Of a stretch of 64,000 bases of DNA, positions 2 through 56,889 are shown one piece after another. The translations under genes and the position numbers were made by a program. The DNA comes from Candidatus Daviesbacteria bacterium (GTDB taxonomy: Bacteria > Patescibacteriota > Microgenomatia > Daviesbacterales > UBA10151): contig JAQTZF010000001.1 in NCBI GenBank assembly GCA_028687915.1, positions 802,634-866,633 on the forward strand, given 5' to 3'. Numbering within the stretch: position 1 is the stretch's first letter; every line of letters starts with the position of its first letter. Under the pieces are notes generated by a model. It saw nothing but the letters and a program-made list of their open reading frames with translations, was not told the origin of the DNA and did not search any database.

Positions 2-1099
2 ACCAGAAATCTGGAAGAGGTTTTGACTGAAGAAGAATTAAAAAAACTTATAGAATCAGGTACCCCTTTAAAACATTATATCGGCTATGAAATTTCCGGA
101 AAACTACATATTGGGCATTTTTTTACTTTGCTTAAAGTAAAGGACATGCAGGATGCGGGAGCAGATACCATTATCTGGATGGCTGATTTACACTCTGCTA
201 TAAACGATAAGCTTGACGGAAATTTGGAAACTATCTCCAGGTTGGCAAAAGAATATTTTGAGCAAACTATGAAAGTTTTGTTCAAATCAATTGGGGGAGA
301 TCCGGAAAAACTGGATTTTCAGCTAACTTCTGAAACATATGCCAAAAATCCAAGTATTTGGCAAACTCTTTTGGAAATCGGCAAAAACACATCACTTTCA
401 CGGATAATGAGGTCAATTACTATCATGGGTAGGGAAGAAGCTGACGGCATAGATTCAGCCAAGATTATGTATCCTTTAATGCAGGCTGCTGATATATTTT
501 TGCTTCAGGTAAATATTGCTCAAGCCGGATTAGATCAAAGAAAAGTGCATGTAATTGCTATTGACTCTGCCAATCAGGTAAAAACAAATGCTATCAAGGA
601 CAAGAATGGTAAAACCATTAAGCCAATTGCAATTCACACCCCAATTTTACTTGGCTTAACTCCACCTGAAGCAGTTTCAGAGAATTTATCTGATGATGAA
701 ATTGCCATGAAAACCAAAATGAGCAAGTCCAAGGCTGATTCTGGAGTATCTGTTCATGAAACACCAGAGGATATTAGAGCCAAAATTAACAAGGCTTTTG
801 CACCAGAAGGAGAGACAGAAAATAATCCAATTTTAAACTGGACTAAACATCTGATTTTTTATTATCCTGACTCAAAACTGGAAATAAAAAGGGATGAAAA
901 GTTTGGAGGAAATGTAACTTATAACTCTTATGAAGATTTAGAAAAAGATTACCAGGATAAGAAACTGCACCCAATGGACTTAAAAAACGCAGTTGCTGAA
1001 TGGTTGATTAAAACTATGGAACCAGTCAGAACCTTTTTTGAAGATCCAAAAAGAAAAGCATCTTTAGAAGAAATAGAGAGTTTAGCCTCAAGAGCCTGA
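2..1099 (+). CDS. tyrS: Tyrosyl-tRNA synthetase, archaeal/eukaryotic-type class I (5' end probably outside window; annotated start is TTG at 23 but the frame stays open to the window edge)
   Basis: HIGH motif (KLHIGHFF), ADLHS, LDQRKVH and KMSKS motifs; colinear with M. jannaschii and human TyrRS. Confidence 0.75.
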   Translation, partial: TRNLEEVLTEEELKKLIESGTPLKHYIGYEISGKLHIGHFFTLLKVKDMQDAGADTIIWMADLHSAINDKLDGNLETISRLAKEYFEQTMKVLFKSIGGDPEKLDFQLTSETYAKNPSIWQTLLEIGKNTSLSRIMRSITIMGREEADGIDSAKIMYPLMQAADIFLLQVNIAQAGLDQRKVHVIAIDSANQVKTNAIKDKNGKTIKPIAIHTPILLGLTPPEAVSENLSDDEIAMKTKMSKSKADSGVSVHETPEDIRAKINKAFAPEGETENNPILNWTKHLIFYYPDSKLEIKRDEKFGGNVTYNSYEDLEKDYQDKKLHPMDLKNAVAEWLIKTMEPVRTFFEDPKRKASLEEIESLASRA

Positions 1100-1300: not shown

Positions 1301-1352
1301 AAAAGAAATATAACTATATAATTTTTATCTGACAAGAGTTAAAATAAAAATC

Positions 1353-1457
1353 ATGATGTATTCAAAGAAATTTAGAGTATTTTGGATTATTTTATCTGTT
1401 GTGGCAGGAGCATCTATTTTGCTTTTTTCCTTGCTTCCTCTTTTAACTACACTCTGA
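1353..1457 (+). CDS. Candidate 34-aa hydrophobic peptide MMYSKKFRVFWIILSVVAGASILLFSLLPLLTTL
   Basis: ATG ORF with basic N-terminus and one TM-like segment, immediately followed by a palindromic repeat; below the ORF-track cutoff. Confidence 0.2.
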   Translation: MMYSKKFRVFWIILSVVAGASILLFSLLPLLTTL

Positions 1458-1472
1458 ATTAATACACCACGC

Positions 1473-1544
1473 GTCATCCTGAGGAACGAAGTGACGAAGG
1501 ATCTATTCTATTAACGAGATTCTTCGCTTATCGCTCAGAATGAC
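1473..1544. repeat. Copy A of a ~70-bp imperfect palindromic repeat (nested stems GTCATYCTGAG/CTCAGRATGAC and GAAGRATC/GATYCTTC)
   Basis: Reverse complement nearly identical to 54793-54860 except in the central loop; sits between convergent genes. Confidence 0.65.
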
Positions 1545-1552
1545 AGAGGGGA

Positions 1553-2233
1553 TTAAGCTTTTAGCATTTTAGCTATAAAGATAAATAATAAATCTATAGT
1601 AATTGGAATTAACAATAGTAATGAGAAAACCTTAAATAATTCAGATAAATTTGGAAAATGTAGTGCTCCTAACCAATTTAAAAAAGGAATTAAAAGATTA
1701 GAAAAATATAAAGCTCCAAAGAATGAGAATAAAATAATAAAAGTCACTATAAATAAAGCTAAAGCTCCTTCCATATCTTTTTTACTGGAAAACATGGTAT
1801 TAGCAATCTCAAATACCACAAAAACAACTAAAGCTAACTGCCACCATGGAGTTTCTGAGCTATAAAATTGCAGACTGGTAAATAAAAGTGCCAGTATTAT
1901 AAACATCCCAAAAATAATCGGGGCTGCCCCAATAAAGAATCTTTTAACAGGTTCTGTTTCAGCTATTTTAATACTCCCAAATCTTACCTCATCTCCATCA
2001 ATCTCCGGAAAAATACTAATTTCTCCGGAAGGCACAAGAAACATTCCTGCAATAAGCATGTGTGCAAGCTCATGAACCAATGTTCCAGGTAAAAAGATTA
2101 CTGCTAAAGCATTATAAGTAAATATCCTGCTGTGGCTGATTCTATATAACAAACGAGCTAAACTATTTGTTAAAGAACGGGAGAAAAGAAACAAAAATAA
2201 TATTTCTAAAACAAAAATCAAAAAGAAAATCAT
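1553..2233 (-). CDS. Polytopic membrane protein with intramembrane HExxH (LVHELAHMLIAG); putative membrane zinc metalloprotease (M50 / DUF3267-like)
   Basis: HExxH inside a hydrophobic segment; multiple TM helices. Confidence 0.45.
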   Translation of the reverse strand: MIFFLIFVLEILFLFLFSRSLTNSLARLLYRISHSRIFTYNALAVIFLPGTLVHELAHMLIAGMFLVPSGEISIFPEIDGDEVRFGSIKIAETEPVKRFFIGAAPIIFGMFIILALLFTSLQFYSSETPWWQLALVVFVVFEIANTMFSSKKDMEGALALFIVTFIILFSFFGALYFSNLLIPFLNWLGALHFPNLSELFKVFSLLLLIPITIDLLFIFIAKMLKA

Positions 2234-51316: not shown

Positions 51317-53875
51317 TTATTCTCCTCCTTTATTGTAATTATTTTGTAAACAAGAGTAATCTACAGAATTAACCCGTGAGTCAGTATTTAAATCAGCAGT
51401 CCTGCTAACATCACTATTTAATGCCCACTCTCTAGACATTTCTCCTTTATCAAAAGCATTAACCTTATTATCAGGAGCAGCCACCGGATAAATATCTCCC
51501 ACATATAAAATTATATCACCCAAATTAGTAGTACCTTCTTCTGCTATAAACTCTACTTTTCTACTAACTGTTTTTGGTGCTTTAAGGCTTAAGACATACG
51601 TTTTTCCAATTTCTATACCAGGGGTAAAATCAACTGGTTTACCTTCTTTATCTATATTAATTTTCTTCTTGATAAGTGATTTAGCACCATCAACTTTTTC
51701 TTTAATTTCAACAGCCACATCTGTTGCTGATAAGTCACCAGATTGTGCTAAACAGGTAGTTTTCTCAGTAAAATCAACAGTGGTTAAATCCAATGAACAA
51801 TAGCCATTTATCACTGTACCATCATCAGTAGTTAATACTATCTGATGCCTGCCTCCGGTTAACCTGTCATTTAGGCTGGATTTAATCTCATACCTTGTAT
51901 CTTTATTAGAAGATACTGGAGTAGCGGATAGAGTAGCAGATGAAGTTGAACTTGTATCTTTTCCTAAAGAAACCCAGGAACTAATATTAGCCTGCTTGCC
52001 TTCAACTTTAATATTTCCGGTACCCTGATCATCGTGTAAGCCAAAGTTTATTCCCCTAACAGTTACTAAAGTTCCGGTACCAATAGGACTAAAGGTACAA
52101 TTAGCTGAAGTTATCCTTGGTTCTCCACCAATATACTTAATACTCTTTGAGGTTACTGTGCTTTTATTATCTTTATTATCTTTAAACTGACAAAACAAAG
52201 TTAAATTTCCACCTGGAACAACATTATAAGTAAATTCTTTTGTGAATGTGATAGGAGCACCAGATCCATCTCTATTTCTATATGGCTCCCATTGTGGGGC
52301 GCTGCTACCAGTATCATCTTTATCAAAGCTTTGTTCAGAACACCTATATTCTGTGGTATAAGTTGGAACTGGTGGAGGAGTTGGGGTTACATAGGTAATC
52401 TGGCGGGAGAAAACCTGACTGGTTGTTTCATCTGGCTTTTTAAATTGAACACAAACATTATAAACCTTACCAACAACAGGATTTGCTAATTGATAATTAT
52501 TAATTGATAGGGCATCTGTATTACCAGCAGCCGCATAAGATTCCCATGTAGGGGAAGCATCGCCTGCATTAAAACAGGCATCACCAACTGTGTAACGATA
52601 TTGATAAGTCCTGTCTGTAGGAGCGGCCGTAACGGTTGGTGGTGGTGTTGATGTAGTACTACTGGTTATATCAACAACTTTCCAGCCAACATTTTGACCA
52701 CCACAACTAAAATCTGATATTGTTCCACAATCAACGCATTGGCTTGCAGGTGAACCTAAAGAAGCTGCTGGGCAAGTAGAAGCTCCATACCATTTACAAA
52801 AAGGATTGCCGGAACACCAAACTCTTGGTGCACCACCTATACCAAGTTTGTAGGCTTGGTATTCTGTAGAAGCAGTAGAAACAAAAGGATTAATATAATA
52901 CCTGCCAGTAGACCTGGGGGTCCATTTGGCTGTAAGTATATATCTGTTTTCACCTGTAGTAAAAGTTGACTGATTAAAGGTAAATCCTTTTACGCCAAAA
53001 TTACAATATTGCCTATTAACATTATCTATAGTTGCAGGACTACCTCCACTTGCAACACAATCTGGATTAGGAACATTGTTATTATGATCTTGATCTGCCC
53101 GAACCCAAAGAAGACTTGTTGATAATAGACCGCCCAGTACACTAGTATTAGCAGTTGAGGTAAAGGAGAGCTCTTGACCCACCACACCGCTACTAGGACC
53201 TTCAACAGAGGCGCTGATGGCAGGATTTGTTCCATCTGGATTTCTAGCAGGTGCTCCAGAAGCTATGGATTGTCTAGTAAACCAAACATGATTCCATCTA
53301 CAATTACCCCAGTCATCTGTAGATGATGTTGGTTTCCTAACAGCTTTAATTTCAATTGACTGATCATTAGAAGGTGTTGCAAAAGTTCCTTGCTGAATAG
53401 GTACGCCACATTCATTACCAAGATTATCAGTCACTTTATGAAACCATTTGGTTAACTTAAAATTAGGGTCATCAACATGAATAGAAACTCTTGTTGGTAC
53501 ACCATCTACTGTACCCAAAGGAATACTTATACGTTCAAAAGTATAAAAAGGTTCATCATGGACAAAAGTGCTACCTTTTCCAGAAGGGTCAGGGTTGCAG
53601 CCACTGGAAAATGAATCACCATCAGATCCTTGACTCCATGTCACTTTATAAGTTGGAGTACCTTGACAAGCAGGGCCACCACAAGAACCGCCAATTATTT
53701 TTCTCTGATTAGTACAGCTACCATAAAGTGATGGATTCTCATCTGTCACCTGACCAAGTAAAACAGCACCCTCTCGTGAGCCATTCCAAACAGCAGATGC
53801 TTTTTGGGCAGAAAAAATAAAAAAGACAACCAATATTAAACTAAATAAATATGTAAATACTTTAATTTTTTTCAT
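51317..53875 (-). CDS. Large secreted Cys-rich protein (852 aa), hypothetical surface protein
   Basis: Signal peptide; many Cys pairs; Ig/fibronectin-like repetitive beta-rich regions. Confidence 0.55.
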   Translation of the reverse strand: MKKIKVFTYLFSLILVVFFIFSAQKASAVWNGSREGAVLLGQVTDENPSLYGSCTNQRKIIGGSCGGPACQGTPTYKVTWSQGSDGDSFSSGCNPDPSGKGSTFVHDEPFYTFERISIPLGTVDGVPTRVSIHVDDPNFKLTKWFHKVTDNLGNECGVPIQQGTFATPSNDQSIEIKAVRKPTSSTDDWGNCRWNHVWFTRQSIASGAPARNPDGTNPAISASVEGPSSGVVGQELSFTSTANTSVLGGLLSTSLLWVRADQDHNNNVPNPDCVASGGSPATIDNVNRQYCNFGVKGFTFNQSTFTTGENRYILTAKWTPRSTGRYYINPFVSTASTEYQAYKLGIGGAPRVWCSGNPFCKWYGASTCPAASLGSPASQCVDCGTISDFSCGGQNVGWKVVDITSSTTSTPPPTVTAAPTDRTYQYRYTVGDACFNAGDASPTWESYAAAGNTDALSINNYQLANPVVGKVYNVCVQFKKPDETTSQVFSRQITYVTPTPPPVPTYTTEYRCSEQSFDKDDTGSSAPQWEPYRNRDGSGAPITFTKEFTYNVVPGGNLTLFCQFKDNKDNKSTVTSKSIKYIGGEPRITSANCTFSPIGTGTLVTVRGINFGLHDDQGTGNIKVEGKQANISSWVSLGKDTSSTSSATLSATPVSSNKDTRYEIKSSLNDRLTGGRHQIVLTTDDGTVINGYCSLDLTTVDFTEKTTCLAQSGDLSATDVAVEIKEKVDGAKSLIKKKINIDKEGKPVDFTPGIEIGKTYVLSLKAPKTVSRKVEFIAEEGTTNLGDIILYVGDIYPVAAPDNKVNAFDKGEMSREWALNSDVSRTADLNTDSRVNSVDYSCLQNNYNKGGE

Positions 53876-54792: not shown

Positions 54793-54860
54793 CACACTAA
54801 ACATATATAAAATGTCATTCTGAGCATAAGCGAAGAATCAATACTTATGAGATCCTTCGT
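54793..54860. repeat. Copy B of the ~70-bp imperfect palindromic repeat (inverted relative to copy A)
   Basis: GTCATTCTGAGC…GAAGAATC…GATCCTTC…CCTCAGGATGAC; immediately downstream of the GIY-YIG gene. Confidence 0.65.
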
Positions 54861-54903
54861 CATTTTATTCCTCAGGATGACAAGAACGTATTTATTAGAA
54901 CAT

Positions 54904-55179
54904 TCAACAAAGATCATCCCAGTTAGGGTTTTTAGATTCAATAAGCTTTATTTTCTTAATTCTTAGCCATCCTTTAATGCGTTTTTCAGCAGAAATTGCA
55001 TCATTAACATCTGTAAATTCCTCATAATAAACAAGCTTATTTAAGTTGTATTTATGGGTAAAACTAGGAATTAGTTTTATTTTATGTTCATGAATTCTTC
55101 TTTGAATATTATTAGTAACTCCCGTATATAAAACATTATTTGATTTGTTAGTTAGTATATAAACGAAAAAACTTCTCAT
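54904..55179 (-). CDS. GIY-YIG family nuclease (UPF0213/YhbQ-like, 91 aa)
   Basis: FVYILTNKSNNVLYTGVTNNIQRRIHEH motif. Confidence 0.8.
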   Translation of the reverse strand: MRSFFVYILTNKSNNVLYTGVTNNIQRRIHEHKIKLIPSFTHKYNLNKLVYYEEFTDVNDAISAEKRIKGWLRIKKIKLIESKNPNWDDLC

Positions 55180-55200
55180 AAATTTATACTCTCAAACATA

Positions 55201-55350
55201 AACTACCAGTCAAGAGATGTTTCGCTTTGCTCAACATGACGCTTTAAGGCTCCGTAGCCATGAGGCGCTACAATGGCCCTAAACCGGCTGGAAAGCAGGG
55301 CAGTGCTATGGTAAGCTATCCATAGTTTAGGCTGTCCTAAAGCCCCAAGC
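55201..55350 (+). ncRNA. Candidate structured ncRNA (GC-rich island with nested helices and a GCU-GGAA-AGC GNRA hairpin); family and strand unassigned
   Basis: GC content about 55% against the AT-rich surroundings; helices CCTAAAC/GTTTAGG, CTATGG/CCATAG, GCCAT/ATGGC; no ORF. Confidence 0.25.
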
Positions 55351-55850
55351 TAATTATATAGAAAAACAATAAAAACTCAAAAACAGATAAGAAAATTATT
55401 GAAGAAAAGTAGCAAAATATGGCACAAATAAATACTACTTAAAAACCAATAAAAATTGATTCAGGTACAAATTTATATATTTTTACCTCTCCTCCGGCTA
55501 GCCTCCACGACGTCGTATAAGATACATTGTGCGACGTCGTAATTGGGAAGTAAACTTACTCACTACATTCAGAGTAGAGCTAAGGCTAAATTAGGAGTAG
55601 TTTGTGGCTTCTATTCTTCTTATTTAGCCTCATTTTATGTATCTAAAGCAACCCCTGCCTCTCCTCCGTACTAGTAACTACTTATCTTTTCACGCGTGAA
55701 AATAGATGTTAGCAGTCTTACAGTTACTGTAGTAAGTTTAGCTTCAAAAAGAGAGTACTCCACTCCTGAATATATTTGCTAAAAAATGTATATTTATTGA
55801 GGCTAAATTGAAGCTACAGAAAAAGTCCAGAGAACACTATACCCTATAGT

Positions 55851-55871
55851 TTAGCCACAAAGTTATCCACA
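55851..55871 (+). promoter_or_regulatory. Tandem DnaA-box-like 9-mers TTAGCCACA-aag-TTATCCACA (second is a perfect consensus) next to an AT-rich tract
   Basis: Direct match to TTATCCACA; lies within an 840-bp gene-free region. Confidence 0.3.
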
Positions 55872-56022
55872 ACTGTCCTCTATCTGTATCAGACTATATC
55901 AAATATACTATCCTATAGTTTTTTATATTCACGAAATCTTATTTTTGATCAAAGGTATCAAACTATATCATTTGAAGCTAAAAATACCACTTCCCCTCTT
56001 CTCCACCTTCTTGCTCTGAATT

Positions 56023-56889
56023 TTATCCTGTCCAGGAAGTTGTTAAAACTGCAATTAAGAATACCCCCAAACCCCAGCCCAAAAATTGCCAAACGTCTAC
56101 TCTATTCAACCTGTCTTTTAGGGTGTGTGTAGCAATACCAAGAGTCACATAAAGTCCGGTTGAAATTATGAGTGATGACATAGGTTTAGCAATTGGCCAA
56201 AATGATAAAGAGAGCGCCATCTCCCCCACAATTAAAGCTAAAATTGCAGACCATACTAAAATAAAGCTGTTTAAGCCTTCCATATCCAAAGACCAAATTA
56301 CCTGTAAAATCAATGGAAAACTTATTAAAAATACTGCTACCCCATTCCAGATAAAAAATAAGTTTAGAGAAAAGACTACATTAAACAACATATAAGCAGT
56401 TATTAATGTCAGAACAAATACAGTAGTAGATGCTACACGATATAAAGGTATAGTTCTAATAGATGCAACATTAAATACATTTTGAGAAAGCAACAAAGTA
56501 TAGAATACCAATCCAAAGGCAATAGCTACAGGAAATCTGGTTAGCCATCTTACTGGTAACAAAAAATAATAGCTTGCAACAGCCAGAGTGAATGCAGTTG
56601 GTAAGATCATCAATACTATTGCTTTAAGACTGTTTAGACCCTCCCACAGAGCCCAAATAGATAAAGCAAATGCTAAAAGTGCCAGCCCTGCAATAAAGCG
56701 GTAAGTTAGATAAAATGGAACTAATTGTGTGGACAATAATCCAAAAGATAAAACAATAGAAACAATAATTATCTTATGGCGTTTACCCAAAGATAATCTT
56801 TCATGGCTTAAAGCAATAAAAACCTTAATTATGTAATCACTTACTCTAAAAATAAAATTCATTTCGCGACTAATTTTAGAACATGACAA
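56023..56889 (-). CDS. Polytopic membrane protein, hypothetical (start probably at a downstream Met)
   Basis: About 8 TM helices. Confidence 0.5.
   Translation of the reverse strand: MSCSKISREMNFIFRVSDYIIKVFIALSHERLSLGKRHKIIIVSIVLSFGLLSTQLVPFYLTYRFIAGLALLAFALSIWALWEGLNSLKAIVLMILPTAFTLAVASYYFLLPVRWLTRFPVAIAFGLVFYTLLLSQNVFNVASIRTIPLYRVASTTVFVLTLITAYMLFNVVFSLNLFFIWNGVAVFLISFPLILQVIWSLDMEGLNSFILVWSAILALIVGEMALSLSFWPIAKPMSSLIISTGLYVTLGIATHTLKDRLNRVDVWQFLGWGLGVFLIAVLTTSWTG

Follow-up and report, generated by a model that had tools for sequence, protein, structure and literature searches.

A 64,000-nucleotide (nt) stretch of the Candidatus Daviesbacteria contig JAQTZF010000001.1 (positions 802,634 to 866,633, here called the window; 35.5% G+C) carries two copies of a palindromic element of ~70 bp, copy A at 1473-1544 and copy B at 54814-54881, and a gene for a 91-amino-acid (aa) GIY-YIG nuclease that lies beside copy B. 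An initial annotation, made from the sequence alone, had described the two as inverted copies of a nested palindrome, reverse complements of each other save for a variable centre. The repeat is real and non-random. Exact GTCATYCTGAG occurs at 4 sites in the 64 kb, every one inside copy A or B, and with at most one mismatch there are 7 sites against 1.2 expected, a number that none of 100 shuffles reached. A chance palindrome is ruled out on sequence and statistics. The position first given for copy A was exact, whereas that for copy B (54793-54860) was off by ~21 nt.

The ~70-bp element is a convergent pair of directional hairpin repeats of 25-31 nt and not one nested palindrome. Each copy is made of two inverted units, GTCATYCTGAG..CGAAGRATC, with a spacer of 11-14 nt between them, and an arm of the palindrome (e.g. 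TGTCATTCTGAGCGATAAGCGAAGAATCTCG) is framed in the same way as NTS, the hairpin repeat of Neisseria. In a common orientation copies A and B both read GTCATCCTGAGGAA..GACGAAGGATC, spacer, GATTCTTCGCTTAT(C)GCTCAGAATGAC. The left arms match at 90.6% over 32 nt, the right arms at 96.4% over 28 nt (blastn within the window, E 7e-6 each), and the spacers of A (14 nt) and B (11 nt) have no similarity to one another. From its 5' tail, GTC, a unit runs into a stem of 5 bp, in which AT(N)(N)T is paired with A(N)(N)AT. Above this stem come an internal loop of tandem G.A/A.G and an upper stem-loop that is short and variable, and the unit closes with a 3' C. A covariance model, R1, built from 79 units of loci outside the window, finds exactly five units in it (E 4e-9 to 3.5e-5). 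All five begin with GTCAT; in the 79-unit alignment GTCAT was required by the collecting pattern, so its invariance there is not independent evidence. The initial annotation had missed that each arm is a complete hairpin unit, and had also missed the fifth unit at 55216-55240. The features are as follows.

1473 to 1503, plus strand: unit A1, long type, GTCATCCTGAG-GA-AC-GAA-GT-GA-CGAAGGATC; R1 match 1471-1506, 26.9 bits, E 3.5e-5
1504 to 1517, no strand: spacer of copy A, 14 nt, not conserved in the A/B alignment
1518 to 1544, minus strand: unit A2, short type, GTCATTCTGAGCGATAAGCGAAGAATC; R1 match 1515-1546, 40.9 bits, E 4e-9
54814 to 54839, plus strand: unit B2, short type, GTCATTCTGAGCATAAGCGAAGAATC; R1 match 54812-54842, 31.6 bits, E 2e-6
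54840 to 54850, no strand: spacer of copy B, 11 nt
54851 to 54881, minus strand: unit B1, long type, GTCATCCTGAG-GA-AT-AAA-AT-GA-CGAAGGATC; R1 match 54848-54883, 34.3 bits, E 3e-7
54904 to 55179 including stop, minus strand: GIY-YIG nuclease gene, 91 aa, single-domain; Pfam PF01541, E 2e-16
55216 to 55240, minus strand: upstream (fifth) unit with a variant stem, GTCATGTTGAGCAAAGCGAAACATC; R1 match 55213-55242, 37.9 bits, E 3e-8
54814 to 55240, minus strand: whole cassette (unit, gene, unit, inverted unit), from synteny and alignment

Both copies are intergenic. As the initial annotation had stated, copy A lies between convergent genes, 8 nt past the stop of a 226-aa HExxH membrane open reading frame (ORF; 2233..1553, minus strand) and facing a class-I Trp/Tyr tRNA-synthetase gene (23..1099; Pfam PF00579), and copy B lies downstream of the GIY-YIG gene, its unit B1 coming first at 22 nt past the stop codon (ORF 55179..54904, minus strand). 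The 3' end of the upstream unit is 36 nt before the GIY-YIG start codon. Because this fifth unit lies upstream and copy B downstream, the nuclease gene sits in a unit-bounded cassette. Copy A has the same two ends with 14 nt in place of the gene and is a gene-less derivative of the cassette, resembling a miniature inverted-repeat transposable element (MITE). No remnant of a GIY-YIG gene near copy A rose above chance in tblastn.

Rfam gave nothing at gathering thresholds over the whole length of the window, ARAGORN found no tRNA or tmRNA, the PADLOC defence library returned a marginal UzuA fragment only, and the PHROGs phage library only generic GIY-YIG homing-endonuclease fragments. A literature search with the unit sequence strings retrieved primers and vector sequences only. 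A weak sixth R1 match at 51864-51890 (plus strand, 14.3 bits, E 0.13), with the sequence CTGTCATT-12 nt-AATCTCA, lies inside an 852-aa ORF and is probably due to chance or a decayed unit.

The hairpin under selection

The T/C differences between the copies had been read by the initial annotation as G:U-tolerated sites of the long hairpin, and thus as a sign of selection on a 70-nt RNA or hairpin structure. Two collections point to another structure: 111 two-unit elements from other genomes, picked by DNA pattern, and 244 units adjoining GIY-YIG genes, picked by similarity of the protein and not by DNA. Among the former, 217 of 222 units have a Watson-Crick pair (131 C-G and 86 T-A) between the Y of GTCATY and the R of that arm's own GAAGRATC, so the differences are compensated inside each arm, another feature that had been overlooked. 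The Ys of the two arms are independent of each other, being discordant in 50 of the 111 elements against 53 expected by chance. Because variation in one arm is not matched in the other, selection does not act on the long stem, and the 70-nt hairpin is refuted as the selected RNA structure.

Of the 244 units next to nuclease genes, 221 have complete Watson-Crick complementarity at the stem positions left free, which are two in number and show seven pair types (TC/GA, CC/GG, GC/GC, GT/AC, CT/AG, AT/AT and AC/GT). An alignment of 79 distinct 25-nt units has 99.1% of its cells paired, and four of the seven pairs show compensatory changes, the remaining three being fixed by the search pattern. Double changes number 68 in this set compared with 17.5 in shuffles, and pairing falls to 20-54% when the partners are slid by 1-3 columns. 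The window itself holds examples. The inner stems of A1 and B1 (AC/GT and AT/AT) differ by a compensatory change, and the upstream unit has ATGTT/AACAT for ATYCT/AGRAT, a double compensatory change. These observations support the small hairpin inside each unit as the structure that is selected.

The same data bear on the proposal of the initial annotation that the elements are bidirectional intrinsic terminators. Rho-independent terminators working in both directions, or RNA-stabilising 3' hairpins, would be selected as RNA, and the position of both copies just 3' of genes (8 nt from the membrane ORF and 22 nt from the GIY-YIG ORF) fits such a role. The folding of both strands that had been suggested as a check bears out a stable structure, the whole element folding well as RNA on either strand (-24.6 to -30.5 kcal/mol, z -3.0 to -5.1), and ATTTTATAT follows the minus-strand end of copy B. 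However, a terminator scan called no terminator-like site at copy A or B, the T-run is missing at three of the four element ends, and the independent variation of the arms leaves the long stem without selection. Units also occur singly, in same-direction arrays, right upstream of start codons and in frame in recG, and their asymmetric conserved features (5' GTC, tandem G.A) track unit orientation, not transcription. Selection as terminators or RNA stabilisers is therefore improbable, although a secondary effect of the elements on transcripts is possible.

The nuclease and its repeats in other genomes

PF01541 spans residues 4-75 of the 91-aa protein, which has no extra DNA-binding domain. The catalytic GIY-YIG residues are intact. 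Y7, Y18, R28, E31, H32, E65 and N84 are invariant in 21 homologues and align with a gonococcal protein as well. The best match among solved structures is the 107-aa UPF0213 protein 1zg2, and the NCBI label is "GIY-YIG nuclease family protein" only. The Ssn family consists of ~94-aa single-domain GIY-YIG nucleases that are specific for single-stranded DNA (ssDNA), with SsnA as its founding member (Chenal et al. 2025, PMC11893778). A further mark of the family is cd10448 (GIY-YIG_unchar_3) as the top CDD assignment. Four members, SsnA and three homologues, bind their own repeats in single-stranded form and make a cut a short way upstream, on one strand only, leaving the complementary strand, double-stranded DNA and RNA uncut (PMC11893778). 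The cognate hairpin repeat in Neisseria is NTS (CGTCATTCCCGCGMAVGCGGGAATCYRG), "SRM" being the general name for such repeats; the typical layout is NTS-ssnA-NTS, and repeat-gene-repeat as a mobile element was raised as a hypothesis only (PMC11893778).

A comparison with SsnA was possible because one record of the PLSDB plasmid collection, NZ_CP119140.1, is in fact a chromosome of Neisseria gonorrhoeae (2.17 Mb). It encodes a 94-aa ORF with 16 NTS repeats around it in 3.2 kb, which by size, domain and NTS context is taken to be the SsnA orthologue. The Daviesbacteria protein is 44% identical to it over 85 residues, with 93% of the query covered (E 4e-25 pairwise), and the same match had E 2e-15 in a search of the 7.3-Gb plasmid collection. 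Ssn homologues have been defined by blastp E < 1e-10 and coverage of at least 75% relative to Neisseria SsnA (PMC11893778), and with the gonococcal ORF standing in for SsnA the 91-aa protein falls within these limits.

In all, 1,867 homologues of the protein were detected in several phyla at 65-80% identity. The association between gene and repeat was examined in 82 homologue loci collected by protein similarity, which contain 244 units, whereas shuffles predict 0.05. The units crowd around the gene. Those up to 100 nt away number 7.7 per kb, and the figure falls to 4.3 per kb at 100-200 nt, 2.1 per kb at 200-300 nt and 0.06 per kb beyond 1 kb. A unit lies within 300 nt of the GIY-YIG gene in 65 of the 82 loci, and on both sides of it in 45; for SRMs, 71% and 42% have been reported (PMC11893778). 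Of 100 adjacent pairs with a gap of no more than 60 nt, 45 are convergent, more than in any other class, and their spacers are mostly of 10-20 nt. The locus L001 has a unit, 8 nt, the gene, 3 nt and an inverted unit, and this cassette is placed between carA and carB. A Roizmanbacteria locus has a pair, the gene and an inverted unit (L002), and a Planktothrix plasmid has two pairs, the gene and one pair (L213).

The Planktothrix locus (P. agardhii plasmid NZ_LR882964.1, 17347-20616) has a homologue that is 67% identical and three two-unit elements. The homologue sits between an MmeI-type restriction-modification gene and the DISARM gene drmA, i.e. in a plasmid defence island. Many database homologues (P0024, P0034, P0056, P0085 and others) have a C-terminal tail (..RDSSLRSE or ..DPSLQAHRSG, for example) that is translated from the downstream inverted unit, and gene callers therefore read through into the repeat.

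The initial annotation had suggested a pattern search for further copies. A scan of GTDB species-representative genomes with GTCATYCTGAG-N38-68-CTCAGRATGAC found the two-unit element in at least 120 stretches, in nearly all bacterial phyla. The phyla among the matches listed include Bacteroidota, Chloroflexota, Acidobacteriota, Planctomycetota, Verrucomicrobiota, Firmicutes, Cyanobacteria, Proteobacteria, Omnitrophota and Patescibacteria. With this spread, and with the system published in 2025 (PMC11893778), the repeat is not novel as had been thought. The two-unit anatomy is common to all matches listed, with spacers of 4-39 nt in the 111 parsed elements. The asymmetric type seen in the window, a long GAG-GA-hairpin-GA-CGAAG unit followed by an inverted short one, recurs in Lachnospiraceae, Acidobacteriota and Aminivibrio, for example. 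The element is also present in 32 IMG/VR viral contigs, in some as tandem arrays of 4-5 pairs. Such arrays of two-unit elements, with a period of ~88 nt, lie at the ends of the predicted viral contigs L225 (8546-8969) and L234 (9003-9429).

Several features are shared with the NTS/SRM and Ssn system (PMC11893778). Both have a small single-domain GIY-YIG protein (91 versus 94 aa) and a directional hairpin repeat that starts with (C)GTCAT(T/C)C and ends with G(A/G)ATC. In both, units lie on either side of the gene, SRMs being placed within 500 bp of an ssn gene and often flanking it, and gene-less copies are dispersed. The window units, at 25-31 nt, are within the 20-50 nt set for SRM inverted-repeat hairpins, and inverted pairs occur in Neisseria too (e.g. 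+603/-681 and +1279/-1358 in L203). R1 finds 16 of 16 gonococcal NTS repeats on the correct strands, though weakly (8.8-13.6 bits). The differences are in the stem, which in the window type is ATYCT-GA-GC...GC-GA-AGRAT with a tandem G.A loop while that of NTS runs on through C-G pairs without interruption (ATTCCCGC/GCGGGAAT), in the low copy density (5 units in 64 kb, with further copies in relatives) and in the host, as Patescibacteria, which belong to the candidate phyla radiation (CPR), are unnamed in the main text of PMC11893778. From its sequence, the unit is best described as a motif type related to NTS, yet distinct from it.

Other repeat families resemble the element in part. The initial annotation had called it REP/MITE-like, and this was right in spirit, since its copies are dispersed, form hairpins, are associated with a protein and vary between genomes in presence or absence. 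Repetitive extragenic palindromes (REPs), their mosaic elements (BIMEs) and the associated RAYT proteins share with it short imperfect palindromes, an orienting conserved 5' tail, frequent inverted pairs, many gene-less copies, and repeats flanking the gene of a protein thought to act on ssDNA hairpins. The partner here is, however, a GIY-YIG nuclease and not an IS200/IS605-like HUH/Y1 transposase, and there is no GTAG-type head. MITEs and the Correia elements of Neisseria are likewise non-coding, with inverted termini, insertion polymorphism and, at one site here, a possible target duplication, but the termini of the present element are covarying hairpins and its partner gene encodes a nuclease. 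Rickettsia palindromic elements (RPEs) are similar in being palindromic repeats able to sit in frame in coding genes. RPEs are longer (~100-150 bp) and of other sequence, and both window copies are intergenic. In a Daviesbacteria-like relative a two-unit element is found in frame in recG (L206 1841-1898, also L207 861-918), where it encodes the peptide PVILSETKDLDSSLIAQNDK and leaves the ORF unbroken.

A small ORF followed by an imperfect palindrome of 60-90 bp that can fold as ssDNA also recalls an integron gene cassette, with the element as an attC-like site and the GIY-YIG gene as its cargo. The attC core has the consensus GTTRRRY, which the ends GTCATYC...GRATGAC do not fit. Moreover, units lie on both sides of the gene, solo copies occur between housekeeping genes and there are no cassette arrays here, so that an integron origin is hardly credible.

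Orthologous sites with and without the element

The solo pair and the gene cassette are both polymorphic at orthologous sites in related Daviesbacteria. Around the site of copy A (site A), the gene order in relatives is the same, with DUF5663 followed by the membrane ORF and then the tRNA synthetase. The element occupies the site in the window and also in L206/L207, whose membrane protein is 76% identical and where one unit is partly duplicated. The site is empty in L204/L205 (71%) and L208/L209 (59%), where the stop of the membrane gene abuts the conserved downstream segment. Both flanks of the insert align to one 8-14-nt stretch of the empty site (TTTAAAGTGTAGTT versus TTTATAATGTTGTT in L206). 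From this alignment the flanks may be a decayed target duplication left by a single old event.

A segment of ~100 nt between copy A and the tRNA-synthetase gene has DNA conservation above that of the adjacent genes (window 1325-1440, minus strand; L204 3676-3790; L206 3800-3900; L208 3690-3790). It reads as a small ORF (..SVVKRGSKEKSKIDAPATTDKIIQNTLNFFEYI..) with no Pfam match, and in the window the ATG start of this ORF falls within the repeat end (CTCAGGATGAC).

At site B, that of the cassette, RuvC, DUF5656 and ~900 nt of non-coding sequence are common to the relatives. The window and L211 (GIY-YIG protein 80% identical) have the entire cassette with the upstream unit, and L210 and L212 lack it. 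L211 has, in addition, an extra pair right after the DUF5656 gene that is without a counterpart in the others. In L210 (5220-5570) the place of the cassette is taken by a gene on the opposite strand for a 116-aa 23S_rRNA_IVP protein (PF05635), which suggests that site B is a hotspot for small selfish-looking genes.

The ORF-free stretch of ~800-900 nt between the DUF5656 gene and the cassette (window 55245-56022, minus strand) is conserved in three relatives (L210 4341-5219, L211 2140-3067 and L212 1568-2515). Its near-invariant blocks include TTTTCACGCGTGAAAAGA, TACTTCCCAATTA..GTCGCACAATGTATCTTATGCGACGTCG and, after TATAAT, a GC-rich patch of 105 nt (55245-55352). The region has no Rfam, tRNA or tmRNA match, the search over 55180-56050 giving only chance miRNA-like Rfam matches with E up to 1. 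The GC-rich patch folds no better than shuffles, and the four-sequence consensus fold is weak. The region may hold one or more undescribed non-coding RNAs.

Polymorphism of this kind, together with inverted termini, the lack of coding capacity in the solo element and flanks at site A that resemble a decayed 8-14-nt target duplication, would also be expected of a classical MITE. The units would then serve a DDE-type transposon as terminal inverted repeats, with a transposase encoded elsewhere moving the element in trans and the GIY-YIG gene as a passenger. The duplication rests on one insertion event, however, and is thus not established. The compensatory changes inside each terminus would be needless for ordinary terminal repeats, single units and same-direction arrays are common, and the GIY-YIG nuclease is the sole consistently linked gene, though transposase genes were not looked for in the flanks of the loci collected. 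We regard movement by a DDE transposase as quite unlikely.

Proposed action of the nuclease and its implications

The explanation that we favour, and consider probable, is that the elements are hairpin repeats of the NTS/SRM class which accompany a small Ssn-family GIY-YIG nuclease, with the window nuclease in a unit-bounded cassette and copy A as a gene-less derivative. It builds on what the analysis shows, namely the anatomy of the repeat, covariation inside units, the clustering of units around the gene, the homology of the protein, and sites at which pair or cassette is present in some relatives and absent in others. Binding and cleavage by the Daviesbacteria protein, and the way in which copies spread, are deduced by analogy with the characterised members.

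By this analogy, exposure of ssDNA during replication, repair or DNA uptake would allow the GTCAT-strand of a unit to fold. The folded unit would be bound by the nuclease and, from the homology with Neisseria SsnA, nicked a few nt 5' of the unit. A convergent pair presents one sense unit per strand, so that either exposed strand could be recognised. The predicted cuts at the two outer borders, on opposite strands, have a geometry that would serve for releasing or copying the segment. Such border cuts would suit spread or loss of the cassette, as well as ssDNA control. Candidate roles are therefore self-propagation, control of incoming or replicating ssDNA, or both.

Several points weigh against this explanation. 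The predicted fold of a single unit as free ssDNA is weak (-2 to -3.7 kcal/mol, z ~0) and no better than that of shuffles, and the long hairpin of two units, with its greater stability (-12 to -13 kcal/mol), could mask the units unless protein or G.A pairing shifts the balance. The covariation is blind to whether the hairpin forms in DNA or RNA. The published SRM pattern, HGTCWYN(0-2)YYVSBRHN(0-5)WNVSBRGN(0-2)RNCYNB, matches no unit of the window (0 of 5) or of the related set (0 of 244), while it gives 9 sites in the gonococcal control locus. The partner in the protein comparison was the gonococcal orthologue and not N. meningitidis CAX49033.1 itself, and ssDNA cutting by this subfamily is presumed at an identity of only ~44% to assayed proteins. 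Lastly, a GIY-YIG gene lies within the locus (up to 8 kb) of just one of the 120 solo pairs listed. Gene-less copies therefore far outnumber genes, and solo copies act, if at all, with a nuclease encoded elsewhere.

A bolder proposal is that the cassette and the gene-less pair belong to a class of mobile element not recognised so far, the cassette as its autonomous form and the pair as its non-autonomous one, with a 91-aa GIY-YIG nuclease directed by ssDNA hairpins as the "transposase". We hold this to be possible but doubtful. If true, it could explain how near-identical repeats and 65-80%-identical genes come to be found across phyla (Patescibacteria, Bacteroidota, Cyanobacteria, Firmicutes, Acidobacteriota and others), plasmids and viral contigs.

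The element is not of a new kind. It is a further case of the repeat-plus-nuclease system first described in 2025 (PMC11893778), with a distinct motif type and a CPR host. One consequence is for annotation, as read-through of units has given metagenome proteins C-terminal tails (e.g. ..DSSLRSE, VILSEAKDL) and small ORFs that are spurious and number in the thousands. Surveys that use the published SRM pattern under-count the system, because the pattern misses this very widespread repeat type. The failure of the search pattern, the two-unit solo form and the direct evidence of polymorphism for both pair and cassette are what the present analysis adds. It extends the Ssn nuclease and hairpin-repeat system to a genome of the Patescibacteria, and the polymorphisms lend sequence-level support to the hypothesis (PMC11893778) of a mobile repeat-gene-repeat unit with gene-less derivatives.

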